DNA from: a virus
IMG/VR virus record: IMGVR_UViG_3300033402_000312
Reading direction: 5' to 3' (one strand)
Length of the DNA stretch: 64,000 nucleotides
Each line of letters starts with the position of its first letter. Position 1 is the first letter of the stretch. A model generated the notes under the pieces. It was not told the origin of the DNA. It was given only the letters and a program-made list of their open reading frames with translations, and made no database searches. Shown one piece after another: positions 8,803-55,355 of this stretch. Both the position numbers and the translations under genes were made by a program.

Positions 8803-10932
8803 TTACCTTCTCCCTCTCCTATTCCAAGGGCTTACGGGGTTAGTTCCCATGTAAGAAGCTGCATGTTGTTGGGATTTCTTGAGCTTTTCCATGATCTTCA
8901 GGACTTGCATGGGGATGCCGTCCATGCCGAGCAGCGGGGCCGGGGGGCGCATCATCTGCGCCTGCATGAGCAGGCTGAGACCGGAGGGGTCCATCATCTG
9001 CCCCTGCTCCAACAGCCAGCGCTGGGCAAGGAAGGCGCACAGCATGGCAGCGTCCGCCATGTCGTCATGAGCGCCCTTTTCCTGCGGCGCTGCGACGCGA
9101 ATGCGGTACTTCGCCATAACCTCAAGCTCGACGAGCTTCAGTTCCTGGATGAACTTCGGCACGTAAGGGAAGCGGCAGCGCTCGGACTCGATGTAGCCGC
9201 GCAGGGCGTATGCCATCTGCGAGTTGATCGCGGGCGTCAGGTTGACAAGCTCGAAGTTCCTGATCTTCTTCAGTTCAAGTGTCTGTACAAGCTGCTGGCC
9301 TCCATGCTGGTCGGTCGCCCCCTTGAAGCATGGAAGAATCTTGTTCATCTCCTCCATCCAGTCGAGGATGTCTTCCAGCGGAAGAATCTGATAACCCTCG
9401 TATTTGTTTTGCCCGATCCCCACCTTTACGCCCGGCCATTCGCCCTTCTCGCCGACCATCATCCGGTCGATATAGTCGTAGATCAGCTTGATCGTGCCGT
9501 GCGGACCGCCTGGCTCAAGGTGCCCAATGGCGAGCGCGGATGCGTCGTTCGTCATGCCGAGGTCGAAGCCCCAGAAATAGTTCCTGCCGATCTGCATCGG
9601 AGTGAAGCGCTGGATGTTGATGCGTGCGCTTCCCTCGACAGGCAACCCCCTCTCGTCCCACTTGCAGTCCGTGCATTTCTTCACCGATGCCTCAGTCACA
9701 TAGGATTCGGACGACTCTAGGAACTTGCCGCCATATTCGGCCTTGAATGTAAGCGGGTTCTTCTTGTACTCAGATTTGAGGAACTTCGCCAGCAGCTTCG
9801 GGTTCATCTCGGCGCTTGGGCAATTAAGCGTGAAGATGCCGGAAACGATAGGTCCCTCTTCCAACGCCATCTTGTGAAGCTCGTACATCTTGCCGATCTT
9901 CTTGAGCGGGCTGCTGATGCTCAGAATCATGGAGTCCTGAATGCCCTCGTTCTCGTCCTCGAACTCAAGACCCGGCTCGGTTTCCTCGAAACGCACATTG
10001 GAGTCCGTGCCGAAATCCGTGCCCATCGGCTCTTCCGGCAAGGTGCCAGCCGCGACGAGCTTCTCGTGGTGGAAGTCTGCCGTGGACGGCGTAGCCGCCG
10101 CGTACATGTCGTCCGACGTCGATCCTTTCGCGGAGCGGAAGTGTGCAAACTCGTCGAGCGCAAGGAAGATGGATGAAGGCGAACGCACGGCGTTCGTGGT
10201 GCATGGAAGGCAGCTTACTGTGACCGTGGGCGTGGACTCCTGCTTCTCGCGGTCGGCGAGCGTGACGAATGCCAAGTCCTTTGCATTAGTATCCTTCAGG
10301 TACGGGGCAAAAAAGCTTTCAGCCTTGAGCACCTGCTCGCGCAGCTTCTTGAACAGGCGGTGAGCGCCGTTCTCATCCTGCGCAAGAAACGTGAAGTCAA
10401 TGATGGAGCCGGGAAACAAACCGAAGTGCTCCTGCGGAGACCTGATATTTAATAGCAAGTAAAGCTTGTAGCAGGCCACAGCCGCCACTAGCTCCGACTT
10501 GCCTCCTCTCCGCCCGGCGAAAACGCACGCCTCATTGAAGCCCGCCTCGCCGGGGATGCCGCCCATGTTCGGGATGTCGCGCCAGTCGGAAACGTTGCAG
10601 CGCTGCTCGTTAAACGTAATGCGGAGGTACTCCTCCTCGGTCACGTCCGCGTGCAGTTTCTTCTCGCGGAACACGTCGTACATCGGCACCATGCCCCATC
10701 CGGGGATGCGCGACGTCCATTCTGGCTTGTAGTCGAAGGGAACGCCATAGATCGCCTTGACAATAACGCGCTGCACCGGACGCAGCACGATGCCTATGCC
10801 GCCCGGTCCCTCGATAAATTCGATGGCGTTTTGCAGCTTGCTCGGGTCTTCGATGCTCGCGGCAATGGCTGCGCCGAAGACGGAATCCTTGGCGGCCTTG
10901 CCGAAACGCTTGCTTCTGCGGATGTTAGCCAT
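8803..10932 (-). CDS. terL: terminase large subunit (709 aa)
   Basis: Walker A-like FAGRRGGKSELVAAVACYKL, then FLALDEFAHF (Walker B/DE), then a nuclease-like C-terminal half with acidic residues. The size and position are typical for TerL. Confidence 0.85.
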   Translation of the reverse strand: MANIRRSKRFGKAAKDSVFGAAIAASIEDPSKLQNAIEFIEGPGGIGIVLRPVQRVIVKAIYGVPFDYKPEWTSRIPGWGMVPMYDVFREKKLHADVTEEEYLRITFNEQRCNVSDWRDIPNMGGIPGEAGFNEACVFAGRRGGKSELVAAVACYKLYLLLNIRSPQEHFGLFPGSIIDFTFLAQDENGAHRLFKKLREQVLKAESFFAPYLKDTNAKDLAFVTLADREKQESTPTVTVSCLPCTTNAVRSPSSIFLALDEFAHFRSAKGSTSDDMYAAATPSTADFHHEKLVAAGTLPEEPMGTDFGTDSNVRFEETEPGLEFEDENEGIQDSMILSISSPLKKIGKMYELHKMALEEGPIVSGIFTLNCPSAEMNPKLLAKFLKSEYKKNPLTFKAEYGGKFLESSESYVTEASVKKCTDCKWDERGLPVEGSARINIQRFTPMQIGRNYFWGFDLGMTNDASALAIGHLEPGGPHGTIKLIYDYIDRMMVGEKGEWPGVKVGIGQNKYEGYQILPLEDILDWMEEMNKILPCFKGATDQHGGQQLVQTLELKKIRNFELVNLTPAINSQMAYALRGYIESERCRFPYVPKFIQELKLVELEVMAKYRIRVAAPQEKGAHDDMADAAMLCAFLAQRWLLEQGQMMDPSGLSLLMQAQMMRPPAPLLGMDGIPMQVLKIMEKLKKSQQHAASYMGTNPVSPWNRRGRR

Positions 10933-12000: not shown

Positions 12001-12822
12001 TTATGCGACACCTGCGACTGTTGCTTTTGCCCGCACGATTCCGGTGAGGGGCTGTTTCATAATTCGTTCAGCGATTTTGAACTTTCTGGGCAACGCAATG
12101 ACACAGTCTTTGTAAAGTAGTGCAGTAGCATTACGAGCGCGGTCGCCACAAAGTAAAACATCATGTATGGAACCATGCGGTCCCACTTGCCCATAAATGT
12201 TGTTATCAGCGAGAAAATTCACGAATGTTGTGCATGACGCGAGCGATCCGCAAAGTTCCATGACTGCTGTGTTTTTAGATGTGGCTGGATAGCCGTCCCC
12301 GTCAACCATGCCCCGCCAAAAATGCCTACTGTTAACAACCTCGGCGGAGGGGGCGGCTGTAAAAGACTTGCGTTCAGTTATACCTAGTTCCCTGAGGCGG
12401 CGATACAGCTTATCGGAAAGAAGTTGAACTGTATTACATCCAGCCCTTGTTGGAGAAATTGGATACGAAGACTTCAAGAAATCCAAAAATAATCTAAGGT
12501 GCTTTTTATCCTTCTTCGCCAATTTCAGCCTTATTCTGGCCGCTGCGTTATGTTTGCGGTTTCCTTCAACAGTTCCGTCCGCTAGCAAAAATCCGATCCA
12601 ATAAAGCGCCTCTTCGCCTAGAGGCGCATCAAATGCGGTTTCATTGACGGAATACTTCCTGAAAGCTTCTGAGCGACTTCTGACAGCACCATCACCTTCT
12701 ACCCTGACGATCTTCAGAATTGTGGCGCGGCAAAGACGGTAAGCCTTTTGCAAATCAACGGAGCTTTCTCCAGATTTGTACCGTGTTAAAATTTCCTTGC
12801 GAGTTTTATCCATGATCTTCAT
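12001..12822 (-). CDS. LAGLIDADG-family homing endonuclease (double-motif, ~273 aa)
   Basis: Two LAGLIDADG-type motifs, LYWIGFLLADGTVEG and FWRGMVDGDGYPA, preceded by an N-terminal HTH-like segment. The ATG at 12822 lies 17 nt after the stop of the 1591-aa gene. Confidence 0.8.
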   Translation of the reverse strand: MKIMDKTRKEILTRYKSGESSVDLQKAYRLCRATILKIVRVEGDGAVRSRSEAFRKYSVNETAFDAPLGEEALYWIGFLLADGTVEGNRKHNAAARIRLKLAKKDKKHLRLFLDFLKSSYPISPTRAGCNTVQLLSDKLYRRLRELGITERKSFTAAPSAEVVNSRHFWRGMVDGDGYPATSKNTAVMELCGSLASCTTFVNFLADNNIYGQVGPHGSIHDVLLCGDRARNATALLYKDCVIALPRKFKIAERIMKQPLTGIVRAKATVAGVA

Positions 12823-12838
12823 AAATCTCAGATACCAC

Positions 12839-15800
12839 TTACTCACGAGTGCCACAAACAAAACGGTATTTCATGATGAGGCTGTCAGTATCAATAGTCT
12901 CTGGGCGAACAAAAACCTCATAGACGAACCCACCGTTTGGGTCATCGTTCCAAACGGCTGCTTGCGCCCAACTAGAATTCAGAGCGCTCTTAATGTCCCC
13001 GTCGTTGAGTTTTTTCATCAACCACGCAACACGACCGCCTTTGCCGGTGACTCCTAATGGTTGTGTCTGTTGACCCTGCTCAATAATGTCAAGCTGAATT
13101 TCCCCTACGCCTGGAACTTTATCAAGCAATGGACGTTGTGTAATTTTGAAACTTGCTACGAAAGTTGCGGCTATTTCCCCGCATACCTTTTTCAAAAACT
13201 CGGAGAATTGCTTAACTTCGTCTCCCGCAGCGACTTTCTGAGAGGCGATGGCCATCGCGGCTCCCGGTATTCCCTCATACTGACCATAAAATTCATCAGT
13301 AAACATATACCCTCTAATATCGTTCTCCTTGCGGAGAGGCGCTCCTTCGAGAACCTCGGGCTTGCCGTCGCGCCCGATGCCCATTCCGCCCGCTGGCTTA
13401 GTGGACGAGTAGTCCGCCGCAGCCATCGCGAGAGGCTCGACTTCGCCTACGTCGGCAGGCAACTGGATCATCTCGATCACGTTGGTGTCGAGTGCCTCGT
13501 CAAGCATGCCCTCAAGCTCGTGGCTGTCGTCTCCGACGATCTCCGGGTTGCCTGCGCCGCTCATCGGCTGGTTGGTTGCGTTCGGGTAATCCACGATCTC
13601 ATGCTGGATTTCCGGGTAGAATTCCTTCACCACCTGTCCGGGGAAGAAGAAATTGAAGCCCGCTTCCTTTTCGACCTGCTCTTCTGTTTTTGCCATACCG
13701 TCTCCTGCTGTCTTGCCCGCGTCAATTTGCGCCATCGCATCCAAGAACCGTTTCTCTCCGCGACCGCTCTTCAAGGCGGCAATCGCGTCCCGAGCGTTCT
13801 GACCAAACATTTTCAGATTCTCGCGACCTTGGTTTCCGCGCAAAGGATTTTCGCGGGGCAAGTTAACGCCCGCGCCGCCGATAGGCTTGCCCTTATAATA
13901 GAGCATGTAGCCATCGGCATTTGCTTGGTAGGTTAAATCTTCCGCCGCTTTTTTAACGCCCACATTCACGACTTTGGAGAAATCTTTCTTTGTGCCGCGC
14001 CTGTAGCTTTCCCAGCAATCGGATGTGTCTGGGGCGTCGCACTTGATCTTCTTGAAGAGCGTCCAACTGCCTTTTGGCTCCCGGGCCCCCTCGGAGTCTT
14101 GCGTATCCTCGGTCACAAGCTCTATTTTGATTTTCCGATTCGTCGGATGAAAGAAAAACATGTACAATGAACCGTCCACGTTTTCTTGCTTCCAGCCGTT
14201 CGCCCTCAGCAGTTTCTTCATCTGCGTGATGAGCTTGCTATGCCCCCAGCCCTTCTGAGCGGCTTTCTTCACGCCCGTGCCCCCTGCCGTGTAGGCTTTC
14301 TCGTCCCAGCGCAGGCCGTACTGCGCGAGTATCTGCTCGGACTCTTCCCTGTCCGGGCCGCCCATGACGTTGACCATCGGGTCGGGCATCTTCATCGTCT
14401 GGACGGCGATCTGAAGCTGGTGCCATTCCGGCGTGCCCTTCTGCGGCATGCGCTTCACAGAGGTGACATGGATGGCTGCGTTCTTCAGCGAGGAAGAGAT
14501 GCCGACGCTTTTCATGAAGGCGCTGTCTTGGATGTCGGTCTCCCTGCGTTCGTAGTCCATGTTCGCCTTGGCAAGCTCGACCCAGTTCGGCTCTTCCCAC
14601 GGCTCGTTTCCCTCGAACCCGGATTCGCGCTTAAGCTCTTCGTATTGCTTCCTGAAAGTCTTCTTCAGTTGCTCGGCAAGCTGCTCCGGCGTCAAGCCCT
14701 CCTTGATGGCGCGGCGCACCATGTCCTGCTTGAGTTCGAACGTCTCCCTGCTCTCGTTGTCGAGCCACATGTCAAGCTGCCCGGTCTCCCAGTTCGACCA
14801 GTGCTCCTCGCTAATGCCTTGCGGGTCGTCGGCGGTTTTGCCCGAGCTTGCTGATGTTTTCATCGAGATGCATTCGTTGCACAGCCCACGGCCTTCCTCT
14901 AGCTCCGTGCCGGGCAGAAGCTCCTCGCCGCACTTGTAGCAAAACCGCTCAGGATGCTCCGATTCCCCGGATTGCTGCTGCAATTCCTCAAACTTTTTGC
15001 CGCGAGTACCCGCCCCCGCTTGGTCGTAGAATACGTAGGTGTCGCTTTCCGGCGCGTAATCCATCTGCAAGCCCAAGGCTTCCGCAGTGTCCATCATGAA
15101 CGTCGTAAGCTGCTGCTCGAAGGAATCCATGTAGCCTTGCGGGTTCCTCTTCTTCAAGTCCGCGAAGATGCCGTTGAGCCTGTCCGTGACCGCCTTGATC
15201 ACGTCGGTCTTGTTCTTCTCGCTGACGCGGCTCTCGATGGACAGCGCCCTCTTGCCGAAGGAGGCCTTCTTGGAGGCGCTCACGATCCTCTCGGTCTCCC
15301 AGTCGTCGAAACGCATCGCAGGCTTGCCATCCACTTGCCCGCGCACAGCCCAAGTGAAGTCTTGCCCGTTGTGCTCCGGGTCAATCGTCGGGTACTTCTT
15401 TTGAGCCTCGGCGAGGTTCGGGAAGACCTCGCGCCCCTTGCTGCGGGTCACGACCTCGACGGGCGAGTTCACATAGCTCCTCCATTCGACCCACGCTGCT
15501 GTCTTTGTCCTTACGGCAGTTTTGAGGTGCCAGCGCATCTGCTTGTGCTTGAGCAAGCCTTCCCTGAGGAGGTCCTGGAGCACAGGATAAGCCATGTTGG
15601 TGTACTTGCCGCCGCCGAGCGCTTTTTCGATTTCGTCCGTCGTCTTCGGGCCGTGGCCCAGGATTTCCAGCACAAGGTTGCGCTTCGCAGGATCGGCTGC
15701 CGCTGTCTTCTTCACGGGCGGTTTTTCGGGCGGAATCGGCGTTTCGCTCACGGCAGTATGGGAGTTCCACCCGCACGAGCAGGCGTAGGAGTCCTCGGGC

Positions 15801-17614
15801 TTGCCCTTCGATGTCATTTTCCCGCACCACGGGCACCTCATAGTCCAGTTGCTCGCGAACTTGCTGAACTTAGCGGATGCGCTCTTGATGAAGGCATGCG
15901 CTTCCTTGAAGGAGGAGAACGAAGCCTCGCGCCGGGTGCCGCGAAAGACGAACCCAACGTGGAACGATGGGCCCTCTAAGTCCGTGCCGCCGAAAGCCCC
16001 GGTGCCCATGCCCGATGTGACTTTGCCTTGGTTTTCGCCGCCGATTGGCTCAGCGCCCTGCTTGACTTCGGAGGCATCCCCGATCTCGCGCCATATCCCG
16101 CCGCTTTGATCGACCCAAACGTTTTCTGCTTGGTTGTAGTCGAACTCTTCGCTGTTTTCGCTGGCAGCGGCAAGCTCTCCAATGTCGTGGACTTGGACGC
16201 GCTTGCCTTGGCGTTCAAGGACACGGAGGTTGGCGGTCTTTGTTGACTCAGCGCCCTTTTTCTCCTTCGCGATCTCGGCCTCGACGACGGCTTGGGCGTC
16301 GGAAGTGGTGAGACCTTCCTCTTCCAGTTTCCTGACCCTCTCCGCGTAGTCGGGACTCGGGTCGTTCGGGTACTGTTGACCGCCGGTCCCGATGCCCAGC
16401 TTGTCCCGAATATCGACGAATTTCTGCTGGGGATTGATGGGTTTAAGGCTCGTCAGGAGCTTCACCAATTGATGGTAGTTTTCGTTTTCCAATTGGTCGA
16501 TGACGGCTTGGGAGATGCGCTTGAAGCCAGCAGTCTTCATCGCCGCAAGCATCGCCGCCTGGTAGCGTGCCTCCAGTTGCGGGTCCTCCATGATCTGGCC
16601 GCCGCTTTCGATGCCGAGCCTGTCCCAGACATCGTTCTCCAGCAGCATGAGCCTCTCGGCTTGGGAGACCGCCGTCTTGGAGCCGACGTTGATGATGATC
16701 TGGGTGCCTGGCTTCGCGGAGACCTCGGTTGCGCCAGCCGGGGCCTCGCCGTTGAGCTTGGCTTCCGTCTGCTCCACGGCACGCTCGACTTGCTCCTGCT
16801 TGACCTCGATGGGCTTGTGGACTTCCATTTCCGCCTGCGTCTCGATTGCCTCGCGGATCGCGTTCACGTTCTGGCGCTCCGGGGACTTGATTCCGCCGTC
16901 GGCCACAGGGACGCCGTTTTCCTCGTGCGTGTTCGCATGAAGCTCGTCGTTGGAGGCCCCCGCTTCCGGCCCGTCGATGTGGGCTTCGCCGTACGCGTTC
17001 TCTATCGGCTCCATCATCTTCGAAAGCTCTTGGTCGCTGTGGATCAGTTCGGCCGCCAGCTTGTAGGCTTCCGGGCTGTAGCCGTCGTCGGCGAACTTGA
17101 TCGTCACGCCTGTTTTCGTCGAGGCCGCCTTAAGCTTCGCCTCGTATGGCTGCTCTTTCGCGGGCAGCCCCAACGCTTCCAGGTGCTTGCACTTGCGGTG
17201 GCCGATCCAGCCGGGGCAGTTGCAGCCCCAATAGCGCCACTTCTTGTTCTGCGCGATGGTGTAAAGCCTGCCGGAAGACTCGGACTTGATGTAGAAGCGG
17301 TTCGTCCATTGCTTGTTGTCAGGCAGCAGTTGCCCCTCAAATCGTTGTCCGTTGATAACTATGGCTTGCGGGTTGTACTCGGGGTCGTCCGCAGGCTGCG
17401 GGGCTTTGCCCTCGGGTCGCGGCGCTTTCTTCTCGGATTGCTGGGACGGGACGGCGATGTTGAGGGGCTTCATGCCTGCCTCTTCGCGCATCTCGTTGAG
17501 GGCGTCGATCTCTTCCTGCTCGACCGGGTGCCCTTCGGTGAGCTTCCAAAGCAGCGTCTTCGTGAAGACGTTGACTGCGTTGGTTATGTCCGCGATTTTA
17601 TTCTGCTGGTTCAT
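12839..17614 (-). CDS. giant virion-module protein (1591 aa) with N-terminal SWIM-type zinc finger
   Basis: ATG preceded by AAGGGAG. SWIM CxCxnCxH: WGCNCPGWIGHRKCKHLEAL. Additional zinc ribbon CPWCGKMTSKGKPEDSYACSCG and a KYCYKCGEE...CNEC pair. Acidic overall. Confidence 0.7.
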   Translation of the reverse strand: MNQQNKIADITNAVNVFTKTLLWKLTEGHPVEQEEIDALNEMREEAGMKPLNIAVPSQQSEKKAPRPEGKAPQPADDPEYNPQAIVINGQRFEGQLLPDNKQWTNRFYIKSESSGRLYTIAQNKKWRYWGCNCPGWIGHRKCKHLEALGLPAKEQPYEAKLKAASTKTGVTIKFADDGYSPEAYKLAAELIHSDQELSKMMEPIENAYGEAHIDGPEAGASNDELHANTHEENGVPVADGGIKSPERQNVNAIREAIETQAEMEVHKPIEVKQEQVERAVEQTEAKLNGEAPAGATEVSAKPGTQIIINVGSKTAVSQAERLMLLENDVWDRLGIESGGQIMEDPQLEARYQAAMLAAMKTAGFKRISQAVIDQLENENYHQLVKLLTSLKPINPQQKFVDIRDKLGIGTGGQQYPNDPSPDYAERVRKLEEEGLTTSDAQAVVEAEIAKEKKGAESTKTANLRVLERQGKRVQVHDIGELAAASENSEEFDYNQAENVWVDQSGGIWREIGDASEVKQGAEPIGGENQGKVTSGMGTGAFGGTDLEGPSFHVGFVFRGTRREASFSSFKEAHAFIKSASAKFSKFASNWTMRCPWCGKMTSKGKPEDSYACSCGWNSHTAVSETPIPPEKPPVKKTAAADPAKRNLVLEILGHGPKTTDEIEKALGGGKYTNMAYPVLQDLLREGLLKHKQMRWHLKTAVRTKTAAWVEWRSYVNSPVEVVTRSKGREVFPNLAEAQKKYPTIDPEHNGQDFTWAVRGQVDGKPAMRFDDWETERIVSASKKASFGKRALSIESRVSEKNKTDVIKAVTDRLNGIFADLKKRNPQGYMDSFEQQLTTFMMDTAEALGLQMDYAPESDTYVFYDQAGAGTRGKKFEELQQQSGESEHPERFCYKCGEELLPGTELEEGRGLCNECISMKTSASSGKTADDPQGISEEHWSNWETGQLDMWLDNESRETFELKQDMVRRAIKEGLTPEQLAEQLKKTFRKQYEELKRESGFEGNEPWEEPNWVELAKANMDYERRETDIQDSAFMKSVGISSSLKNAAIHVTSVKRMPQKGTPEWHQLQIAVQTMKMPDPMVNVMGGPDREESEQILAQYGLRWDEKAYTAGGTGVKKAAQKGWGHSKLITQMKKLLRANGWKQENVDGSLYMFFFHPTNRKIKIELVTEDTQDSEGAREPKGSWTLFKKIKCDAPDTSDCWESYRRGTKKDFSKVVNVGVKKAAEDLTYQANADGYMLYYKGKPIGGAGVNLPRENPLRGNQGRENLKMFGQNARDAIAALKSGRGEKRFLDAMAQIDAGKTAGDGMAKTEEQVEKEAGFNFFFPGQVVKEFYPEIQHEIVDYPNATNQPMSGAGNPEIVGDDSHELEGMLDEALDTNVIEMIQLPADVGEVEPLAMAAADYSSTKPAGGMGIGRDGKPEVLEGAPLRKENDIRGYMFTDEFYGQYEGIPGAAMAIASQKVAAGDEVKQFSEFLKKVCGEIAATFVASFKITQRPLLDKVPGVGEIQLDIIEQGQQTQPLGVTGKGGRVAWLMKKLNDGDIKSALNSSWAQAAVWNDDPNGGFVYEVFVRPETIDTDSLIMKYRFVCGTRE

Positions 17615-17628
17615 GCCGCCTGGCTCCC

Positions 17629-20600
17629 TTACTTTTCTTCTTCGTCTTCCACGAGGACGATGTCAGCCAAATCTCCGGCCCCAAAATCGAACTCTACCGA
17701 CTCGGACTGATCCTCACCGCACGCCGTCTTGTCTTTGCTGGCAAAATGCTCCGGGTTCACCGTGTCTTCCGCTGCGGGTTCGCCCGCGATTGCCGCCTTG
17801 TCGAAATCGACTCCCGCATCCGCTTCAGCGAGGTCTCCCTCGACGCCGCCGTCATGCTTCGGCCCGACGATCTGCTTGACGGCGGAGTTCTTTCGCCCGG
17901 CCTGCTCCGCTGACTCGGTCTGCGTCGCCATCGGCTCGCCCGCGACCCCGGCCTTGTCGTAGTCAAGCCCGGACTTCGCCTCGCCCATGTCGCCGCTGAT
18001 GTCATCCGCAACTTTTTCGACATCATTTGGCTGACTGTCCTGGACGCGAACAGATAAATGGGGCAAATCCCCCATCATTGCGCGAGCCAGATGGTCTGCT
18101 TCTTCATTGGTATCAAAAGAGTCAAAAACAAATTCTTTGCCACTGTTGTGGACTGGGTTCCTTACTATGACTTGGAATCTTTTTCCATGAACATCATGAG
18201 AAGCTTTGCGCCTGCCCGCGTCGAGGACGGAGACTGTCGGCTGCGGGATGTCCTTGTCCACGGCGTTCGGGCTGGTGCTCTCGGACTTCGCCTGCGCTAT
18301 GTCGCCCTCGATCCCGTGGTCGTGCTTTTCGCCGACCATCTGCTTGACGCCCGTGTTCTGGTTCGCGCTCTTGGTGTTGCTCGGCGTCGGCCCTGAGGTG
18401 TCCCTCTTCTCGACGACCTTCTTGTTCTCCGGCGCTCCCTTGCCGTCGTTCTCCATGTTGTACGGGTTGTCGGCGGTGTCGGCTTTCTTCGCGTTCGCGG
18501 GCTGCGCTTTTCCGTCGTTCGGCGGCGCATCCGCACGACGCTCATTTCTGATCGCCTCCTCCATATCCTCTACAGAGGGGATCGCTTCTATCGCGCTCGT
18601 CTTGTCCTTCCCCTGGGCATGCTCGGGCTTGCTTTCCATCCGGTCGTCAAGCCCCGCCGTCCCGTATTCGCGGACGGAACGCAGCGCCTTTCCCGCCTCC
18701 TCGGTAGTCATGGGCCTGAGCACGCTGCCAGCCGCATCGGCTTTCTTCTGCCCCTGCGGGGGAGCATCCGGGCCGCTGGTGTCCTCAACGTCCGCGTCGG
18801 TCTTGGGCTGGATCACGCCCTCGCCGCCCCTCCAGTTGGCGGGGTTGTCGGCAGTGTCGCTTCTCTTTCTCCTCAGCGGCTTCTTCGGTGCCTTCTTTGC
18901 CTGCTGGGCGATCATTTTCTCGATCATCGCCATCAGCGGCTTGTAAGTCATGAACGTTTTTCCGCCGAGACTGATGAGATAGCCGTTGGAACTGCTTTGA
19001 TCCTCAAAGAGACCGTAGACCGGGTGAACCAGGTCGCCGCTCTCGTCCTCTCTGAATCCTGCACGCTCAAGGGCGTTGTGGATTCTCGCCATCGAGAACT
19101 GCGTTGGAAGAGAGTTGTCATCTCCCTCTTCTTCGTCGTCTTCTTCGTCAACCAGGAATCCCTCGCTGTTCGTCCGTGGCGACCATCCCTTTCCCTTCGG
19201 CGCTGCTTGTTTGATGTCCGCGCCAGCCTCGGGCCTCGGTCGGTCTGTGCCCTTGGAGCGCTCGGCGTCGGTGTCCTTGTGGCACTCGACGGTGCCGCTC
19301 GGCCCGGTCTCCTCGGAGGTCGGGTCCGAAGCAGCGTCGATGTCGTGCTCGTTGTCCGCCGTGTCGGCGACTTTGGCAGAGGCTTCTTTCTCCTGCGACT
19401 CGCCGGTCTCACCGCTAACGCGGGGGAAACTGCGCCGCAGATTCTTATCTCTAGCAAGCGCAAATGGATGAAATTCTCCATCCGCGTCAATGATGCCATC
19501 CTTGTTTTTGGATATGATGCGACCGCAGCCCACGCAATCTATCGGAGCATTTACCGCCTGGCAAGACGGGTTGGTGCAATGAGACGCCGTGCCGTGCGGG
19601 TACCTCCTGTTGCATTCTGGGCAACGACCACTGGCAGCACCACAATGCGGGCACTTAAGCCGAGGCTCCGCTGTCTTGGCGCTCGCCTCATGCTGATAGC
19701 TGCGGATGCGCTTGAAAAGCGCCGCCGCTTCCTGCTTTTCCTGAGGCTCAAGACCGGCCGCGCTGAGCAGATTATCCCAGTTGCGCCTCAGGTCGGACAC
19801 GTCGCCGATCATGTCGTTCATGCCGATGTCGCCCGACTGCTGCGCCATGACGAAGCCGTCGCTGGTGATCGCCATGTCGGTGATTGACGGGTTGGTGTAG
19901 GTCTCGCCGAGGATGTACCCCACGATTGCCGCCATCTTGCCGGACATGTCGGAGAAGCGGCCGGGGAACAGCTTCTTCTTCAGGCCCTCGGACGCCGCTG
20001 CCGTCTTGGACGCCATGCACTCATGCTGGATTTCATCGCTTTCGGCTGAGCAGCAAGGGTCGTCCTCGTCAACGTCGAAGCCGCACTCGCGGCACTTGCG
20101 CTGCCTGACCCACCTGCCGCTCTCCTCGTCCCAGCGTGCGTTCGCGTTCGGGCAGCCGTGCTCGTGGCAGGGCACGCCGTTGATCGCCGCCATCTCGCAC
20201 TGGTCGCAGCTTACGCGGCGGCCGGAGTCCTCGATCTCGCCGGAGACTTCGTCCACGAAGTCGGCGAACTTGCTGTCGATGCGCCAGGCGGACTGCTTGG
20301 TGGCCTCGTTTTCGAGACCGGACTCTTCCCTTTCCGCATCGCCTTCGGAGACCTCCTTTTTGTCCTCCGGCTCGGGGCTGCGGAACGCCTCCGGCAGGTC
20401 TCCCACGTCGCGCTTGTTTGGGCGTGCGCTGCTGCGCGGCTCCGTGCTCTGGCTCTCGCCTTCCGTGTTGGACGGGGCGGAGTTGCTCGGGTCGGTGTCA
20501 ACGTCCACCAGCGGAGCCGGACCCATGTCCTCGGTGATCGCGTCCCAGATGGAGTCGATGTCAAGCTCGACCGCCGTCTTCGGGCGGAACCTGTCGAGCA

Positions 20601-23600
20601 GGGACTCCTTCTCGGCGCGTGCCTGCTTGCCCCTTGTCGAAATGGCTTCGTAGCCGCCATCGCTGTCCACGATCTTAGCCAGCTTGTTAGCAACGTATGC
20701 TGGCGAGAAAGACTTGGACTTCGCGGAGGCGACGTGAACCATGTGGTCGTCGCCGATGTACAGGTCGGACTCGCCGAAGCTTCTCGCGACTTCGCTCAGC
20801 CTGTCCCCCAGACCGCCTTCTTTGAGGGCCTCACGATCCCAGAACCCCACGCCGTGGCCGCAGCGGGTCAGCCAGAAGTCGTGCCCTGCCATGGCCTGAC
20901 CTGACCATTCGCCGGGGCGATCATAGCCTGGGCGCTGGTAGGCTTCCTGAAGCAGAGGCGCGGCTTTCTTCTGGAAATCCGCGCAATCCTTGCGAATCTG
21001 CTGCATGCCCTCGTCGGAGATGTCCTCGATGTCGTAGTTCCTGTCCAGCGGCTCGCCGCCGCTCGGATCGGAACCGTCGTTGGTTGACCAGAGAGCGGCT
21101 TCGATGTAGCCGCGCTCAAAATCGTTCAGGATGTCGCGGTTCACTGCACCGCGCTTGAACTTCAGCGGAATCTCGACGCTGCCCCACTTCTCCTCCGCCT
21201 TCTTGGAGAACGAGTTGTCGCCAGCCGCAGACTTGTCGAGCGGGTACTTGCCGTATCCGCCAGCCTTGATCTCCTTGGCATGGTCGGCAACGGCGCTTGG
21301 ACTCTGGGAATCCGGCTGTGTGGTGGCGGTGATGTACGCCGCAACCTCCTTCGGAGGCGCGTTGCGCTTGTCTACAAAGCCGCCGCTGTACATCTTGGCG
21401 TAGTGGTCGGTGAGATTCGCGTTGATCGGGGGTTCTATCTGCTTGCCACGATTGTCGAAGCCCTCCTTTTCGGGGTGTGGCGTCTTCACGATCTTCGCAG
21501 TCTTGCCCTCTTCTTCCTTGCGGCGGGGATCGCTGCTTGCGGCATTCTTATCCGAAGCCAAAAATCCCCCTTGGTCGGCATATCCCTTAATCCTGTCGAT
21601 GAGACCGTCGGTCCGGTGGGCGGGCATATTCGGATCGTAGCCGGGATTCTCCTCGTTGTACTTGTCGCGGCACTCGTTGGAGCAGAAGTTCGCTCCCGGC
21701 TCTACAGTCGCCTCGCACTGCTTGCAGTGCCCCCAGTGGTCGGCTTTCTTACCTTTGCTGCCGACCTTGGCTTCCTCCTCCTTGCGGCGAGGCACTCCGG
21801 TCTCGTCGATGGCGATGCCGATTGGGCCGCCGGTCGATTCGTCTTCCCTGCCCTCGTCGCCTTGGACGCTCTCCTTCATCGCCGGGGCGGAGGCTTCCTG
21901 CTCGGCGTGGGCTTCGGTCCCCGGGCCGACGTTCGTGAACGGGGTCTCGTGCGGGGCGCAGGCTTCCTTCGCGCTGCCCGTCATCTGCCGCTCGTCAAAG
22001 GCCGCAGCCTCGAAATCGCGTGCCGCCTGTTTCCCGCAGTCCTCGCCGTCGCAGTAAACCGTCTTGGTCTTCGGGTAGTAGTAAACCCGTTCCCCGGCAT
22101 TGATGTCCCGCCCGCACTTCTTGCAGCGGGAAGGCTGCTTGGCTTCCAGCCAGCGGGGGTCGCCGCTGTAGGCTTTCTTCTCGGCGGAGCCTTTGTGCGA
22201 CTCCATGTTCCTCAAGCCTTCTTTTGCCGCATCTTCGGACTTGAAGCTTTCCAGAATCTTGCCCGTCTCGTGCTGCTTGATGCACCATTCGGCCTTCTCG
22301 CCCTTCGAGTTGCGGTGACCGGGGCAATGCGACACGTAGGCGACCTTCTTGAGCGACGCCGCCTTGCAGGTGCAGTTCTCGCAGGAGCACTCGCCGCCAG
22401 CCTTCTTGCAGCCGGGGCACACGCCGTCCGCGCCGATGTGGGCGACCTTCTCGGAGTCAGCCTTGCTCTTGCTGTAGCCGCACTTCTTGTTCGTGCAGGC
22501 TTCCCTCTTGATGGGCTGCCCGGCGACAAACACCTTCTCGACCTCCGTGTCGCTCCCGCACTCGGGGCACTTCTGTCCCTTTTCCTTCTTAGCCTTTTTG
22601 GCGGAGGACTCTTTCTTGTCCTTCTCCTTGGAGCCGAACGGCGGGGCCTGCTTGCCGCCGAAAGCCTCGGAGGCTTCGTGCGCCACGGTAGGCTCGTCGC
22701 CTTCGATGGCGCGGAGCCACTCAGCGGGGACTTGGTCTCGCGGGACTTCTTGGCAGCCCTTCAGGAACTCTTCGCTGATGGCTGTGGTTTGGACAGAGCT
22801 AACACTCCCGGCGATAGCTGTCCCGCGCCCTTCGTACTGGTCTTCGCCGAAGTTCTTTTGGTAATAAGACAACGAATCCGGGTCGATAGCCAAATAGTCG
22901 CCGTTGGACTCTTGGAAAAACCTTAACGGCTCGCCGTTTGCTTCCTTCGACGAAGCCTCGCGGGGCACGCCCGGCTTCGCTTCGGGGGCCTTGAACCCGC
23001 CCTCGCCCTGTGCGCCATCGGCGCTGGGGAGCAGGGACTGCTCAAGCGCCTGGTTCAGGGAGTCGAACACGTCGAGTTCCTGGGGGTCGAGCGTCTGCTT
23101 GGCGATCTCGTCGGCGGTCTTCCTGTTCAGTAGCACCGTCGCCCTCTTCCAGCCAGCCGACTTCTCAAGCTGCGGGAACTGCTTCAGCGGGTTCTCGGAC
23201 AGGAACGGGTAAGACAGCTTCGGCGTGATGTCGGTGACGTCCACCTTGGTCGTGTCCACGTTGGTCATCAGCGCGTTGAAGGCGCTGGACACTGCGGGGT
23301 TGTAGTACGCCGAGAAGACCAGGTGGCGCAGGTCGTTCTTAAGCTGCTCGGCGTTGTCGCTGAAGTGGAAGCAGACGTACTCGCGGGAGTTCATCCAGTT
23401 CGGGGCGAACACCACTAGGGAGGCTTCCTCGCCCGTCTTCGCATCGGTGAAAAGCTCCTTCTTGATCGTGTCGAAATCCGCTTGGCTGTACTCGTCGAAT
23501 TCGCCAGCCCCGATTTTCTTCTCGATGAGGTCGGCGACCTCCTCGCCTCCGGTGCCGAACACGCGGACGAGAGCGCCGTGGAGCAGCGCCGTGGGGAAGT

Positions 23601-23847
23601 TCTGCCTGTCGTTGCACACCTTGGCGGGGACGACCATGATGCGCCCGAGGGAGATGTTCTGGCGAAAGCCGTGGCAGAAGACCTCGAACGACTGCACGTT
23701 GCCGGACGAGCGGGCCTCCTTCTCGCCAGCCTGGACGGCTTCGACGACTTTTTGCAGCAGTTCCTCGCTTACCGTGAATATCTGGAAGCTCTTGCCTGCG
23801 ACGCTGTTGCCGCCGACGCCAGCCTTCTTGGTGATTTCCTTTGCCAT
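17629..23847 (-). CDS. giant acidic zinc-ribbon-rich protein (2072 aa)
   Basis: ATG preceded by AAAGGGGAA. At least 8 CxxC...CxxC ribbons (e.g. CPECGSDTEV...CTNKKCGY, CKKCGRDINAGERVYYYPKTKTVYCDGEDCG, KCPHCGAASGRCPECNRRYPHGTASHCTNPSCQ). N-terminal GNSVAGKS fits [AG]x4GK[ST]. Conserved-looking GHDFWLTRCGHGVGFWD. Confidence 0.7.
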   Translation of the reverse strand: MAKEITKKAGVGGNSVAGKSFQIFTVSEELLQKVVEAVQAGEKEARSSGNVQSFEVFCHGFRQNISLGRIMVVPAKVCNDRQNFPTALLHGALVRVFGTGGEEVADLIEKKIGAGEFDEYSQADFDTIKKELFTDAKTGEEASLVVFAPNWMNSREYVCFHFSDNAEQLKNDLRHLVFSAYYNPAVSSAFNALMTNVDTTKVDVTDITPKLSYPFLSENPLKQFPQLEKSAGWKRATVLLNRKTADEIAKQTLDPQELDVFDSLNQALEQSLLPSADGAQGEGGFKAPEAKPGVPREASSKEANGEPLRFFQESNGDYLAIDPDSLSYYQKNFGEDQYEGRGTAIAGSVSSVQTTAISEEFLKGCQEVPRDQVPAEWLRAIEGDEPTVAHEASEAFGGKQAPPFGSKEKDKKESSAKKAKKEKGQKCPECGSDTEVEKVFVAGQPIKREACTNKKCGYSKSKADSEKVAHIGADGVCPGCKKAGGECSCENCTCKAASLKKVAYVSHCPGHRNSKGEKAEWCIKQHETGKILESFKSEDAAKEGLRNMESHKGSAEKKAYSGDPRWLEAKQPSRCKKCGRDINAGERVYYYPKTKTVYCDGEDCGKQAARDFEAAAFDERQMTGSAKEACAPHETPFTNVGPGTEAHAEQEASAPAMKESVQGDEGREDESTGGPIGIAIDETGVPRRKEEEAKVGSKGKKADHWGHCKQCEATVEPGANFCSNECRDKYNEENPGYDPNMPAHRTDGLIDRIKGYADQGGFLASDKNAASSDPRRKEEEGKTAKIVKTPHPEKEGFDNRGKQIEPPINANLTDHYAKMYSGGFVDKRNAPPKEVAAYITATTQPDSQSPSAVADHAKEIKAGGYGKYPLDKSAAGDNSFSKKAEEKWGSVEIPLKFKRGAVNRDILNDFERGYIEAALWSTNDGSDPSGGEPLDRNYDIEDISDEGMQQIRKDCADFQKKAAPLLQEAYQRPGYDRPGEWSGQAMAGHDFWLTRCGHGVGFWDREALKEGGLGDRLSEVARSFGESDLYIGDDHMVHVASAKSKSFSPAYVANKLAKIVDSDGGYEAISTRGKQARAEKESLLDRFRPKTAVELDIDSIWDAITEDMGPAPLVDVDTDPSNSAPSNTEGESQSTEPRSSARPNKRDVGDLPEAFRSPEPEDKKEVSEGDAEREESGLENEATKQSAWRIDSKFADFVDEVSGEIEDSGRRVSCDQCEMAAINGVPCHEHGCPNANARWDEESGRWVRQRKCRECGFDVDEDDPCCSAESDEIQHECMASKTAAASEGLKKKLFPGRFSDMSGKMAAIVGYILGETYTNPSITDMAITSDGFVMAQQSGDIGMNDMIGDVSDLRRNWDNLLSAAGLEPQEKQEAAALFKRIRSYQHEASAKTAEPRLKCPHCGAASGRCPECNRRYPHGTASHCTNPSCQAVNAPIDCVGCGRIISKNKDGIIDADGEFHPFALARDKNLRRSFPRVSGETGESQEKEASAKVADTADNEHDIDAASDPTSEETGPSGTVECHKDTDAERSKGTDRPRPEAGADIKQAAPKGKGWSPRTNSEGFLVDEEDDEEEGDDNSLPTQFSMARIHNALERAGFREDESGDLVHPVYGLFEDQSSSNGYLISLGGKTFMTYKPLMAMIEKMIAQQAKKAPKKPLRRKRSDTADNPANWRGGEGVIQPKTDADVEDTSGPDAPPQGQKKADAAGSVLRPMTTEEAGKALRSVREYGTAGLDDRMESKPEHAQGKDKTSAIEAIPSVEDMEEAIRNERRADAPPNDGKAQPANAKKADTADNPYNMENDGKGAPENKKVVEKRDTSGPTPSNTKSANQNTGVKQMVGEKHDHGIEGDIAQAKSESTSPNAVDKDIPQPTVSVLDAGRRKASHDVHGKRFQVIVRNPVHNSGKEFVFDSFDTNEEADHLARAMMGDLPHLSVRVQDSQPNDVEKVADDISGDMGEAKSGLDYDKAGVAGEPMATQTESAEQAGRKNSAVKQIVGPKHDGGVEGDLAEADAGVDFDKAAIAGEPAAEDTVNPEHFASKDKTACGEDQSESVEFDFGAGDLADIVLVEDEEEK

Positions 23848-26498: not shown

Positions 26499-26502
26499 GG
26501 CA

Positions 26503-44927: not shown

Positions 44928-44968
44928 GATAGTTTTTCTCCTAAGAAGTTGTCTTAGTCGATTCCCCC

Positions 44969-55212: not shown

Positions 55213-55355
55213 CCTAATAGAAGAACGGGAAAGTCCGAGAAAACAGAGAATATAAAGCACTGAAAACGCAGGAGATCGCTACTGGACATTTTTTGATGCC
55301 CGGCTGTATACTATTGGCGTACGAACGGCATCAAATAAGAAGGAGGAAGGAACCC

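Follow-up and report, generated by a model that had tools for sequence, protein, structure and literature searches.

A giant SWIM-bearing open reading frame of a jumbo phage encodes the C-terminal half of a split and greatly expanded member of a gene family

What a giant protein with a SWIM zinc finger is doing among the virion genes of a phage is the question raised by the open reading frame (ORF) of 1591 aa at 12839..17614 (minus strand, ATG start, stop codon counted in) of the window, i.e., the whole stretch of 64,000 nucleotides of viral DNA that was analyzed in the present study. The original prediction regarded this ORF as a virion-module protein that starts with a single SWIM finger and ends with a globular domain, for which MuF, ADP-ribosyltransferase (ART), and toxin folds were suggested. 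The ORF itself is genuine; a Shine-Dalgarno sequence (AAGGGAG) is located 8 nt 5' of the ATG, and 30 metagenomic orthologues of 930-1518 aa were found. Its assignment to the virion module was also borne out, as it is located among the late virion and packaging genes of a jumbo phage, in a block in which the genes are all on one strand and which includes the capsid protein, the head maturation protease (48673..49596, minus strand; phrog_18299, E 3e-14; the homologue gp331 of Tunturiibacter phage Tunturi_5 is so annotated), and the large terminase subunit (TerL; 8803..10932, minus strand). TerL is the conserved downstream anchor of the locus, and 17 related loci have a gene of the same type at the same position upstream of TerL. 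A megablast search with the gene as query gave zero matches in 50,697 phage records, and scans of the whole protein against Pfam, PHROGs, NCBIfam, and PDB sequences returned weak helix-turn-helix matches, phrog_25052, and noise, and nothing else.

Regarding the SWIM finger, the sole match to CxCx(6-25)CxH in the protein is CNCPGWIGHRKCKH at aa 131-144, with the spacing CxCx8CxH, and when the protein was shuffled 20,000 times with its composition preserved, such a signature arose in only 8 cases. All four ligands (C, C, C, and H) are retained in 26 of the 30 orthologues, and the remaining four are without the entire cassette; the original prediction was to be abandoned if the ligands were unconserved among orthologues, and they are kept in every one of the 26 that bear the module. 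Alignments A3 (20 sequences) and A5 (44 sequences, 36-54% identity) show no variation at these ligands, which are C56, C58, C67, and H69 in the numbering of the module. The Pfam profile PF04434, the SWIM zinc finger described by Makarova, Aravind, and Koonin (2002), scored 13.1 bits (E 0.071) on the window copy, which is below the gathering threshold of 19.6 bits, and 12-16 bits on the orthologous copies; among the 44 members of the family, 12 reach E≤0.01 with it, the best value being 1.2e-4, and a second recurrent Pfam family was not found. As far as may be judged from its sequence, the finger is genuine but divergent, namely, a relative of PF04434 without the score of a curated member. It resembles classical SWIM fingers in the CxCxnCxH pattern, the C-x-C-P-x-W ... 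C-K-H-[LI] context, and the invariance of the ligands; however, the module possesses a conserved N-terminal extension of its own (LPDN.QWTNRF.IKSESS..LY.IAQNK) and, unlike the classical cases, is not attached to a SWI2/SNF2 helicase, MULE transposase, or kinase. A search with the SWIM profile gave 816 clusters of homologues, and among the 150 best-scoring of these matches, the majority are stand-alone proteins 80-150 aa in length. These small proteins are without names in the source databases, no PDB sequence relative was found for the module profile, and nothing relevant was found in the literature on the role of phage SWIM proteins.

The protein opens with the SWIM module, as had been proposed, in a loose sense only; the module is near the N-terminus, but a leader of 75 aa precedes its 94 aa (aa 76-169; 17108..17389, minus strand, as are all of the following segments), in which the ligands are C131, C133, C142, and H144 (codons 17183-17224). 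The leader (aa 1-75, MNQQNKIADITNAVNVFTKTLLWKLTEG...; 17390..17614) is specific to the clade of the window, with homologous segments in 31 related proteins at 32-81% identity, and is missing from the corresponding proteins of more distant loci, the start of which is an HSDxDL cassette. It is the core cassette at aa 170-315 (AAELIHSDQELS...HIDGPEAGASNDELH plus an acidic linker ending in GSKTA; 16670..17107), represented by 33 homologous segments, that forms the N-terminus in these distant loci. The variable cassettes at aa 316-544 (15983..16669) have 3 homologous segments each, and aa 315-391 and 412-458 are shared with two proteins of the upstream partner type described below (P0032 and P0033). 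A second core cassette at aa 545-622 (15749..15982; 32 homologous segments) combines a small alpha/beta unit (FHVGFVFRGTRREASFSSFKEAHAFIKSASAKF) with a zinc ribbon (C594, C597, C612, and C614) weakly resembling ribosomal S27ae ribbons (E 0.006), and this unit also opens the short relatives P0042-P0064. It is followed by a core cassette at aa 632-702 (15509..15721; 31 homologous segments) that is probably a winged helix-turn-helix, on the basis of sub-threshold Pfam matches at aa 640-697 (HTH_20, E 0.048; TrmB, E 0.16); no PDB sequence relative was found for this cassette. The stretch at aa 704-1118 (14261..15505) comprises cassettes at aa 704-784 and 785-882, a second zinc ribbon (C892, C895, C912, and C915), and cassettes at aa 927-1046 (HWSNWETGQLDMW...) and 1047-1118 (core), with 6, 14, 7, and 24 homologous segments, respectively, among relatives; phrog_25052 matches weakly at aa 979-1066 (E 0.0057). 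Both zinc ribbons and the winged-helix match had been overlooked in the original prediction. The two cassettes at aa 1119-1302 (13709..14260) are lineage-specific, each with 0 homologous segments in the orthologue set. The idea that this ORF joins a single finger to a virion protein whose C-terminus is an effector is not supported; the SWIM finger is one of approximately 15 cassettes in a mosaic, the middle cassettes of which are gained and lost among orthologues. The SWIM cassette is itself mobile, being missing in four orthologues and duplicated in one, present in two copies at locus L018, and carried by the upstream partner at locus L031. Internal repeats and paralogous cassettes were sought among the giant ORFs of the window, and none were found.

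The best-conserved stretch of the protein is its C-terminal domain (C-domain) of 289 aa (aa 1303-1591), which shows 68-86% identity among orthologues, versus 37-73% for the N-terminus. Part 1 (aa 1303-1461; 13232..13708) is very conserved, with the consensus FNFFFPGQV.EFYPE.QHE.VDYPN ... GIGRDGKP.VLEG.PLRKEND.RG.MF.DEF, and yet its model is of low confidence (pLDDT <55 at aa 1303-1460), whereas part 2 (C2; aa 1462-1591; 12842..13231) is predicted with a pLDDT of 84-96 from aa ~1463 onward as a compact alpha/beta domain consisting of a long helix and a 4-stranded sheet. The alignments behind the low-confidence AlphaFold models of C-domain part 1 and of the N-terminal domain of the partner protein were shallow, with 38 and 24 sequences, respectively. 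The C-terminal text quoted previously is present (RGYMF... from aa 1434, ...YEVF to aa 1568); however, a globular region of ~350 aa was too generous, as the conserved unit has 289 aa and the confident fold is confined to its last ~130 aa. The fold of C2 gave zero structural matches in the PDB and BFVD, and a MuF, ART, or toxin fold was accordingly not detected; the profile of the whole C-domain also had no sequence relative in the PDB. In each of the 17 related loci, profile matches to the C-domain stop ≤4 residues from the final residue of the ORF. Two further sequences with this domain were set aside: P0036, considered as a stand-alone C-domain gene, was dismissed as a contig-end artefact, and P0060 (247 aa) begins inside the domain and, thus, has probably been truncated by a frame error.

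The C-terminus of the 1591-aa ORF is the conserved and invariably C-terminal domain of the family of Tunturi_5 gp350 (XOB77793.1), the partner N-domain of which is not found in the same polypeptide in the window, but on the upstream ORF of 2072 aa (17629..23847, minus strand). This partner, hereafter the N-type half in distinction from the C-type half at 12839..17614, has its N-domain at aa ~10-270, followed by cassettes and an acidic tail (...FGAGDLADIVLVEDEEEK). One of its cassettes is phrog_1915 (aa 903-1039), the 141-aa profile of which is matched end to end, as is the profile of phrog_9437 in a 1660-aa ORF. Tunturi_5 gp350 is a single unsplit protein of 1080 aa; its N-terminus is 41.5% identical to the 2072-aa ORF over 259 aa, and its C-terminus is 44% identical to the 1591-aa ORF over 284 aa (tblastn E 1e-70). 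The two halves in the window are separated by 14 nt (17615..17628, minus strand); at this junction, the TAA stop is followed by a GGGAG Shine-Dalgarno sequence and an ATG in a different frame, and the SWIM cassette adjoins this split point. In related loci, the halves overlap by 1-25 nt, are 0-9 nt apart, or are separated by a gap of ~600 nt (L029 and L031). A programmed frameshift joining the two ORFs was ruled out by the second ORF having its own Shine-Dalgarno sequence and ATG, and is also contradicted by the conservation of the N-terminus of the second ORF among orthologues and by the overlapping or abutting arrangement elsewhere. No terminator-like site was found between the halves, and a promoter and terminator scan around the pair gave nothing beyond shuffle expectation.

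A gene of 166 aa (g166; 23858..24358, minus strand) is located upstream of the pair, and its homologue is directly upstream in all 17 related loci and in L010. The order g166, N-type, C-type, TerL was found in 16 of the 17 loci in the HMM survey; TerL was not found downstream in L029, and in Tunturi_5 it lies across the record origin. The survey contained two unsplit forms (1080 and 1276 aa) and 13 distinct split forms with a summed length of 1601-3059 aa, with L022-L025 reading identically. A third unsplit form, P0073, is the minimal one; its 488 aa consist of the N-domain and C-domain with zero cassettes, and it is flanked by homologues of g166 and TerL. At 2072 + 1591 = 3663 aa, the pair in the window is the largest observed, and in the whole comparison of 18 loci, which counts the window and the 488-aa form, every array of at least 1,601 aa is split into two genes. 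These comparisons demonstrate that the 1591-aa ORF constitutes the C-terminal half of a gene that has been split and greatly expanded and belongs to a family of Tunturi_5-like jumbo/huge phages, and that the ancestral form was one protein, with an N-domain of ~250 aa and a C-domain of ~290 aa, between the 166-aa gene and the large terminase. They also establish that small autonomous cassettes, many of which are known elsewhere as stand-alone phage ORFs, have piled up between the two domains. This region has been expanded to approximately 3,100 aa of SWIM, zinc ribbon, winged-helix, and small-ORF PHROG modules, and cassettes have been swapped between N-type and C-type proteins as well as among orthologues.

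The motif [A/S/G]-[S/A/G]-K-[T/K]-A is enriched approximately fivefold and marks the borders of the cassettes. K[TK]A occurs 12 times in the 1591-aa protein versus 1.5 expected (maximum of 7 in 5,000 shuffles), 223 times versus 43 in the orthologue set, 164 times versus 35 in the surveyed loci, and 6 times versus 1.3 in Tunturi_5 gp350. When related orthologues are counted as independent, 44% of BLAST segment ends are located ≤8 aa from a motif, versus 12% with random motif placement. One copy is found in the low-confidence linker directly before the folded C2 domain, and the N-type proteins of the clade of the window have a prefix of 8 aa (MAKEITKKA), the end of which coincides exactly with the start of their relatives (MGVSGNS). 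The enrichment is limited to giant and neighboring late proteins, and none was detected in TerL, the capsid protein, or a 924-aa ORF at the end of the window. The codons at the motif vary, which indicates that selection acts at the peptide level; a DNA-level recombination signal was ruled out by the same variation. Two observations count against the cleavage of proteins at this motif: a scaffold-like 741-aa protein shows no clear enrichment (3 versus 1.4 expected), and a KTA near the N-terminus of the capsid protein (LLKTAGG), which was considered as support and found to be weak, is not kept, being KSA in Tunturi_5 and missing in phage G. A literature search on the motif found nothing relevant, and cleavage sites are not reported in the multi-omics paper on phage G.

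Considering the architecture together with the late context, we favor, with roughly even credence, the reading of the pair as a multi-module cargo that is carried in the capsid, enters the host with the DNA, and is possibly cut at K-[T/K]-A; the architecture is read from sequence, and packaging and cleavage are what we infer. Under this cargo reading, the two proteins would be made late with the virion proteins and loaded into the capsid via the conserved terminal domains, the acidic GDLADIV tail of the N-type half may stand in for its missing C-domain, and the pair would enter the host along with the DNA. The cassettes, which are non-enzymatic (SWIM, zinc ribbons, winged helix, and others), may each bind a nucleic acid or protein of the host or phage, and this binding may serve early takeover or anti-defense functions, as proposed for polyvalent proteins. 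The prohead protease, for which the head maturation protease at 48673..49596 is the putative candidate, may also cut the K-[T/K]-A sites and free the cassettes as separate small proteins.

The polyvalent proteins are multi-domain proteins that are proposed to be delivered into the host with the DNA, as is envisaged here for the pair, and the account by Iyer, Burroughs, Anand, de Souza, and Aravind (2017; PMC5512222) describes the same combination of many unrelated domains per phage polypeptide, mosaic shuffling, and a late-gene context. In contrast, the fixed frame of an N-domain and C-domain, the K-[T/K]-A border motif, and the two-gene split are absent from the passages of that account (PMC5512222) matched by keyword search, and the cargo of the pair consists of small binding modules rather than enzymatic or anti-restriction domains. 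Two further observations count against a cargo role: the polyvalent hallmarks (methylase-helicase, ArdC-N, zincin/MPTase, MuF, ART, lysozyme, ParB-like, and PBECR) were not found in either ORF by Pfam, PHROG, and NCBIfam scans, and the terminal domains gave no match to known capsid-targeting or structural folds. Tunturi_5 belongs to the same lineage as the window (capsid protein 70% identical, GC 58%), and its gp350 was annotated as a 'DarB-like antirestriction protein' by Phold (PMC11924767). This label is structure-based and automatic, and PHROG profiles gave zero matches to gp350. The protein has the homologous N- and C-domains and is also located after a g166 homologue (gp349) and before TerL; however, it is a single ORF of 1080 aa in comparison with the two ORFs totaling 3663 aa in the window, and it is without the SWIM cassette and the acidic GDLADIV tail. 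Similar to the pair, DarB of phage P1 and the Dar system involve a very large phage protein for which transport in the head and activity upon arrival are proposed or known. DarB is defined by the pairing of N6-adenine methyltransferase and DExH helicase domains, and no methylase or helicase families were found in the 1591-aa or 2072-aa ORF using Pfam, PHROGs, and NCBIfam.

Regarding precedents for cleavage, some P1 Dar proteins are processed proteolytically before incorporation (PMC5512222), and the ejection proteins packed by giant phages, which amount to tens of MDa, are cut at a recurrent short motif by the prohead protease (PMC10052503). The giant myoviruses SPN3US, phiKZ, and 201phi2-1 have a large internal head-protein mass, and, as in the putative substrates of the window, a short motif recurs many times within their substrates and the protease gene is in the same module (PMC10052503, PMC7411985). 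The window represents a different, phage G / Tunturi_5-like lineage without sequence similarity to their proteins. The candidate motif K-[T/K]-A, at which cleavage in the window is putative, is also unlike the cleavage motif of SPN3US gp245, A-x-E.

A more far-reaching version of the cargo reading, which we consider speculative and rather unlikely, is a true polyprotein cargo, in which ~30 small host-directed modules, many of which also occur as free phage ORFs, would be strung between two capsid-loading domains and enter the prohead as two giant chains. The head maturation protease would then cut these chains at K-[T/K]-A into small proteins that accompany the injected DNA, and the locus beside the terminase would be an open-ended growth zone that captures new modules and splits past ~1,300-1,600 residues. 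If a cargo role is true, very large phages would package many small takeover or anti-defense factors as expandable fused arrays, not as separately targeted proteins, and injected effectors of uncultured huge phages could be located by the rule of an N-domain, cassettes separated by K-T-A, and a C-domain. Candidate effector modules could likewise be catalogued, among them the small SWIM proteins with their more than 800 clusters, and Tunturi_5 together with its Acidobacteriota host constitutes a cultivable test system. Even without a mechanism, an automatic 'DarB-like' label is corrected, and two neighboring giant ORFs are revealed to be halves of a single evolutionary unit.

The leading alternative, which appears unlikely, is that the pair represents an internal head or DNA-organizing structural protein, similar to the inner-body proteins of phiKZ or to internal scaffolds. 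Its zinc ribbons, winged helix, and SWIM finger would then bind and arrange the very long genome inside the head, with no action in the host. The location within the virion block directly upstream of the packaging genes, the nucleic-acid-binding types among the cassettes (SWIM, winged helix, and zinc ribbons), and the conservation of both terminal domains, as expected of assembly contacts, are consistent with such a role, as are the relatives on very large contigs, the longest of which reach 463 kb (IMG/VR) and 894 kb (protein table), sizes that imply large capsids. However, phages with 80-86% identical C-domains differ strongly in their cassette content, which is difficult to reconcile with a fixed structural role, and a structural role is also opposed by the 488-aa minimal form without any cassette and by the giant proteins having neither internal repeats nor paralogous copies.

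We regard as quite improbable a non-virion role, in which the pair would act inside the cell as a hub or regulator, such as a late DNA- or protein-binding scaffold in packaging initiation, replication-packaging coupling, or transcription, and would never be packaged. The conserved adjacency to the terminase genes (16 of the 17 loci), the SWIM, winged-helix, and zinc-ribbon modules, and the absence of a recognized structural fold would suit this role; on the other hand, it is unlikely that a regulator could gain or lose the greater part of its sequence (488 to 3663 aa), and the K-[T/K]-A enrichment is common to other giant late proteins of the head and tail block, which points to a shared virion-linked process.

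Very doubtful is the view that the locus serves as a tolerated sink in which mobile small ORFs, introduced by recombination or homing-endonuclease activity, become in-frame fusions between two domains that are essential, and that the resulting cargo is largely functionless. Homing endonuclease genes do occur at the locus, with a LAGLIDADG gene (12001..12813, minus strand) immediately 3' of the 1591-aa ORF and an HNH-like ORF between the two halves in L031, certain cassettes are found in this genome alone, and cassettes also occur as free small ORFs; against this stand reading frames of 1,000-2,000 codons that are kept open across dozens of lineages, clear purifying selection on the SWIM ligands and core cassettes, and a border motif that is preserved as a peptide despite varied codons. 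A MuF-like or toxin-carrying head protein with a C-terminal ART or other toxin, to which the virion-block position and large size alone would point, is effectively refuted, as no Phage_Mu_F, ART, or toxin family was found in Pfam, PHROG, and NCBIfam scans, the C-domain profile is without a PDB sequence relative, and, in contrast to MuF fusions, in which Phage_Mu_F is N-terminal and the toxin tip at the C-terminus varies, the C-terminus is the most conserved region of the protein. The LAGLIDADG gene of the window is missing at the corresponding position in L009 and is a mobile insertion outside the system.

Regarding the 1591-aa ORF on the minus strand (12839..17614), its position and length were exactly as originally predicted, and the C-terminal text quoted with that prediction is present at aa 1434-1568. 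Its ATG start codon is preceded by a good Shine-Dalgarno sequence. The minus strand carries all convincing genes of the window, which make up a tailed-phage late block: a large terminase (8803-10932, -), a major head protein (43968-44996, -), a head maturation protease (48673-49596, -), three homing endonucleases, one endonuclease VII and further giant ORFs, which encode 2072, 1660, 1883 and more than 924 aa. No nucleotide match was found among 50,697 phage records. The capsid protein shares 70% identity with its counterpart in Tunturiibacter phage Tunturi_5 and 35% with the one in Bacillus phage G. Tunturi_5, which exists in culture, is a jumbo myovirus of 309 kb with an acidobacterial host and a GC content of 58.4% (PMC11924767), and the GC content of the window is 58.6%.

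The 1591-aa protein is the C-type half of a split gene pair, the N-type half of which is the 2072-aa ORF directly upstream (17629-23847, -). Among deposited phages, its C-terminal domain occurs only in Tunturi_5, in the unsplit gp350 (1080 aa), the last gene ahead of the terminase; the gp350 C-terminus is 44% identical to the 1591-aa protein over 284 aa, and its N-terminus is 41.5% identical to the first 270 aa of the 2072-aa ORF. The metagenomic protein P0073 (488 aa) consists of the N-domain and C-domain alone, directly joined, and is flanked on one side by a gene homologous to the 166-aa gene of the window and on the other by a terminase homologue. HMMs of the N-domain, C-domain, SWIM module, TerL and 166-aa protein were used to survey 17 loci, 14 of them from IMG/VR, and the order 166-aa gene, N-domain protein, C-domain protein and TerL was observed at 16 of the 17 loci, with TerL of Tunturi_5 lying just across the record origin; at locus L029, this survey found no TerL downstream of the pair. 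Both domains reside in a single ORF at two surveyed loci (1080 and 1276 aa), P0073 being a third unsplit form, and in two adjacent ORFs in the window and at 13 distinct loci, a number that takes into account that L022-L025 read identically. N-type proteins span 1232-2072 aa and C-type proteins 369-1591 aa, and their summed length is 1601-3663 aa, the window pair being the largest. We consider this family architecture to be solid.

A sequencing frameshift was rejected as the cause of the split: the halves are two genes because the window junction consists of TAA, 14 nt with GGGAG and then ATG in a different frame, while at other loci the two ORFs either abut or share 1-25 nt. An acidic tail, [FL]-G-x-G-D-L-A-[D/N]-[I/V]-V-x-E, terminates almost all split N-type proteins and reads FGAGDLADIVLVEDEEEK in the 2072-aa ORF; the exceptions are L029, which lacks it, and L021, which has a divergent form. 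This type of tail is confined to split lineages, and was not found in the unsplit or C-type proteins of the collected set. A strongly conserved HSDxDL motif pair, A(A/D)(E/D)(L/I)(I/M)HSD(N/D/Q)(D/E)L ... GPEAG(P/A)SNDE(L/M)H, lies at aa 170-315 of the 1591-aa protein (16670-17107). In the distant lineages L021, L022, L027 and L028, it forms the very N-terminus of the C-type protein, and may be the counterpart, at the split, of the N-type acidic tail.

The last 289 aa (aa 1303-1591) are the best-conserved part of the 1591-aa protein, with 68-86% identity among orthologues, the N-termini of which share 37-73%. A profile search with this domain recovered 42 further relatives, with identity down to 33%, and the domain occupied the extreme C-terminus in all full-length relatives. 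In an AlphaFold2 model based on an alignment of 38 sequences, only aa ~1463-1591 reached good confidence (pLDDT 84-96), and are predicted to form a small alpha/beta unit with four strands in its sheet, preceded by a long helix. The aromatic-rich stretch aa 1303-1460 was poorly modelled, though its motifs are the most invariant ones of the domain (FNFFFPGQV.EFYPE.QHE.VDYPN and GIGRDGKP.VLEG.PLRKEND.RG.MF.DEF); folding of this stretch may require a partner, or the alignment may lack depth. The domain had no match in PHROG, Pfam or NCBIfam and no relative among PDB sequences, and the best BFVD match of its model in Foldseek had an E of 0.019 and a TM below 0.2. The suggestion that the C-terminus adopts a MuF, ART or toxin fold was rejected because nothing resembling it was found in these searches; moreover, toxin tips are variable, whereas this domain is conserved more strongly than any other region of the protein.

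In the cargo region, BLAST comparisons with orthologues resolved the 1591-aa protein into blocks that are each independently present or absent. Homologous segments counted among approximately 30 relatives were most numerous for the HSDxDL core of cassette 170-315 (aa 170-240; 33 segments), an alpha/beta unit with a zinc ribbon (aa 545-622; 32), the leader (aa 1-75; 31) and a winged helix (aa 632-702; 31), followed by the cassettes at aa 1047-1118 (24), 785-882 (14), 927-1046 (7), 704-784 (6), 316-400 (3) and 462-547 (3); those at aa 1119-1223 and 1224-1303 had none. The winged-helix match is weak (HTH_20, aa 640-697, E 0.048), and two zinc ribbons are present (C594/C597/C612/C614 and C892/C895/C912/C915). 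The two halves also exchange cassettes: C-type orthologues contain blocks of the 2072-aa ORF, and vice versa. The 2072-aa ORF, which contains many CxxC zinc ribbons, carries phrog_1915 from end to end (positions 5-140 of 141; aa 903-1039; E 9e-33), and the 1660-aa ORF (33862-38844, -) carries phrog_9437 (positions 2-98 of 98) and an end-to-end copy of the small-ORF family phrog_6504. The SWIM, phrog_1915 and phrog_9437 cassettes are counterparts of free small phage protein families. No paralogous cassettes were found among the giant ORFs of the window, and every module is therefore different. Family and sequence searches recognised no enzyme domain in either half of the pair.

The SWIM finger itself was substantiated. 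A pattern scan of the protein for CxCx(6-25)CxH gave a single match, CNCPGWIGHRKCKH, at aa 131-144, and a signature of this type arose in 8 of 20,000 shuffles. The original prediction would have been undermined by loss of the ligands in orthologues; C, C, C and H are retained in all 26 that bear the module (26/26). The entire module (aa 76-169 in the 1591-aa protein) is missing from 4 of 30 orthologues, and another orthologue, P0018, has two copies. Across 20 modules (31-74% identity), the four ligands and W28, R31, S36, Y43, Q47, W54, L70 and L75 are invariant. PF04434 (SWIM) was not reported in a Pfam scan of the whole protein. When isolated modules were searched, it was matched by 8 of 10 and was the sole match in 6 (12-16 bits, E 0.007-0.15; 13.1 bits for the window copy), and is the best or only Pfam match for most, yet these scores are under the gathering cut-off of 19.6. 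When 1.84 billion representative proteins were searched with a module profile, 816 clusters were matched at E<=0.001, of which 352 reached E<=1e-10, and the best 150 of the 816 were mostly stand-alone proteins of 80-150 aa, for which the source databases gave no names. R31, C56, C58, C67, H69 and L70 are invariant in a 44-member alignment (36-54% identity to the window module); 12 of the 44 matched PF04434 at E<=0.01 (best 1.2e-4), and no other family was matched by more than one member. Judged from these sequences, the module represents a divergent type of SWIM finger, widespread as an independent small protein. One stand-alone member lies within a run of short same-strand ORFs, nearly all without a Pfam match, a setting that resembles an accessory region of a phage. 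Among deposited phage genomes, a copy was found only in a 595-kb uncultured megaphage. The cassette is on the C-type ORF in the window, L009, L018 (two copies) and L019, and on the N-type ORF in L031 (aa 1324-1410 of 1450); the HMM scan did not find it at the 12 remaining surveyed loci.

The tripeptide KTA is over-represented 13-fold in the 1591-aa protein, as are KTA and KKA 7-8-fold in the 2072-aa ORF. K[TK]A was observed 12 times against 1.5 expected in the former (maximum 7 in 5,000 shuffles), 16 against 2.2 in the latter, 7 against 0.8 in the 1660-aa ORF, 223 against 43 in the orthologue set and 164 against 35 in family proteins of 14 distinct surveyed loci; it was absent from the terminase (0.43 expected) and from the 924-aa ORF at the window end (0.17). 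Its context is [A/K/V]-[S/A/G]-[S/A/G]-K-[T/K]-A-[A/G/D/S]. SWIM modules mostly end no more than one or two residues from an ...[AG]-S-K-T-A linker, and almost all homologues have a copy ahead of the second part of the C-domain (aa 1462-1591), in a low-confidence linker of the model. Internal BLAST segment ends fell within 8 aa of the motif in 44% of 216 cases against 12% for random placement (P ~5e-4), a value that is indicative only as the orthologues are non-independent. The N-type protein starts MAKEITKKA-GVGGNS in the clade of the window and M-GVSGNS in relatives, and the motif therefore closes an 8-residue prefix at exactly the point where the relatives start. Free variation of the codons encoding the motif speaks for selection on the peptide rather than for a recombination signal in the DNA. 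A 730-aa protein with zinc ribbons, encoded two genes upstream of the pair (24363-26555, -), has 4 K[TK]A against 0.7 expected, and its positional counterpart in Tunturi_5, gp348, has 6 against 1.2, clustered near the N-terminus (GSKTAS, NKTASA, AKTASA); this protein may be a further substrate of the same process. The listed start of the capsid ORF (43968-44996, -) is an upstream GTG, and the likely start is an ATG giving MANLSRTQQQ..., as in Tunturi_5. The K-T-A (LLKTAGG) 19-21 residues past this ATG is a weak candidate for a propeptide site because it is KSA in Tunturi_5 and missing in phage G.

Considering its fixed place in the virion/packaging block, its conserved terminal domains and two precedents, we infer that the pair may be a late, capsid-loaded cargo protein, a reading to which we give roughly even confidence. 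Ejection proteins make up a large mass within giant phage heads and are processed by the prohead protease at a repeated short motif (PMC10052503, PMC7411985), and multi-domain "polyvalent" proteins are described as entering the host together with DNA (PMC5512222). The way of working would be similar to that of the latter, but the pair was not classed as a polyvalent protein because every hallmark domain of that class is missing. A DNA-organising internal head protein or a non-virion regulatory hub would each have to accommodate the extreme turnover of cargo between close relatives and the cargo-free 488-aa form, both of which speak against these roles. A locus that is largely a functionless sink for mobile small ORFs is made less likely by the length of the open frames and by the conservation of both the ligands and the peptide motif. 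As capsid cargo, the pair would be made late and loaded into the capsid, the SWIM finger would be one binding module of many, acting early in infection on host or phage nucleic acid or protein, and the K-[T/K]-A sites would be possible protease sites freeing the modules. Assemblin-type proteases, which are kin of phage prohead proteases, cut after alanine. We regard cleavage at the motif as rather doubtful.

The nearest named relative of the pair, gp350, was labelled "DarB-like antirestriction" by the structure-based annotator Phold (PMC11924767). This label was not supported: DarB is defined by a methylase-helicase pair that was found in neither half in the window, and nothing was found for gp350 among PHROG profiles. 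As far as our searches show, four features appear to be new within the literature searched: a constant frame of N-domain and C-domain around a cargo region that is open-ended, the separation of long arrays into two genes, an acidic tail specific to the split forms and the K-[T/K]-A motif at cassette borders.

Besides the pair, the head/tail block contains the 1660-aa ORF and an 1883-aa ORF (49609-55260, -), which may follow the same cassette-array logic. The latter is directly upstream of the protease, a position like that of Tunturi_5 gp328, annotated as a "DNA ejection protein", three genes upstream of the protease of that phage. Homing endonucleases of the LAGLIDADG, GIY-YIG and HNH classes lie in the structural module (12001-12813, 26503-27306 and 42891-43874, all -). 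The LAGLIDADG gene lies just after the 1591-aa ORF and is missing there in L009; in L031, an HNH-like ORF separates the halves, and P0024, an orthologue of the 1591-aa protein, has precomputed LAGLIDADG_3 and HypA Pfam matches within its ORF. The large terminase genes downstream of the pair in L020, L030 and L031 encode 998-1493 aa with the TerL match in separate pieces, which suggests intein or endonuclease insertions. Relatives of the 1591-aa protein are on contigs of 155-465 kb (332-465 kb for L018, L021 and L026), and the identical protein P0001 is listed on a contig of 894,233 bases. If a single phage genome, this contig would surpass the quoted upper limit of 735 kb for known tailed phages (PMC8814770); a concatemer or misassembly is an equal possibility. 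The only sizeable plus-strand candidate gene of the window encodes 238 aa (31086-31802).
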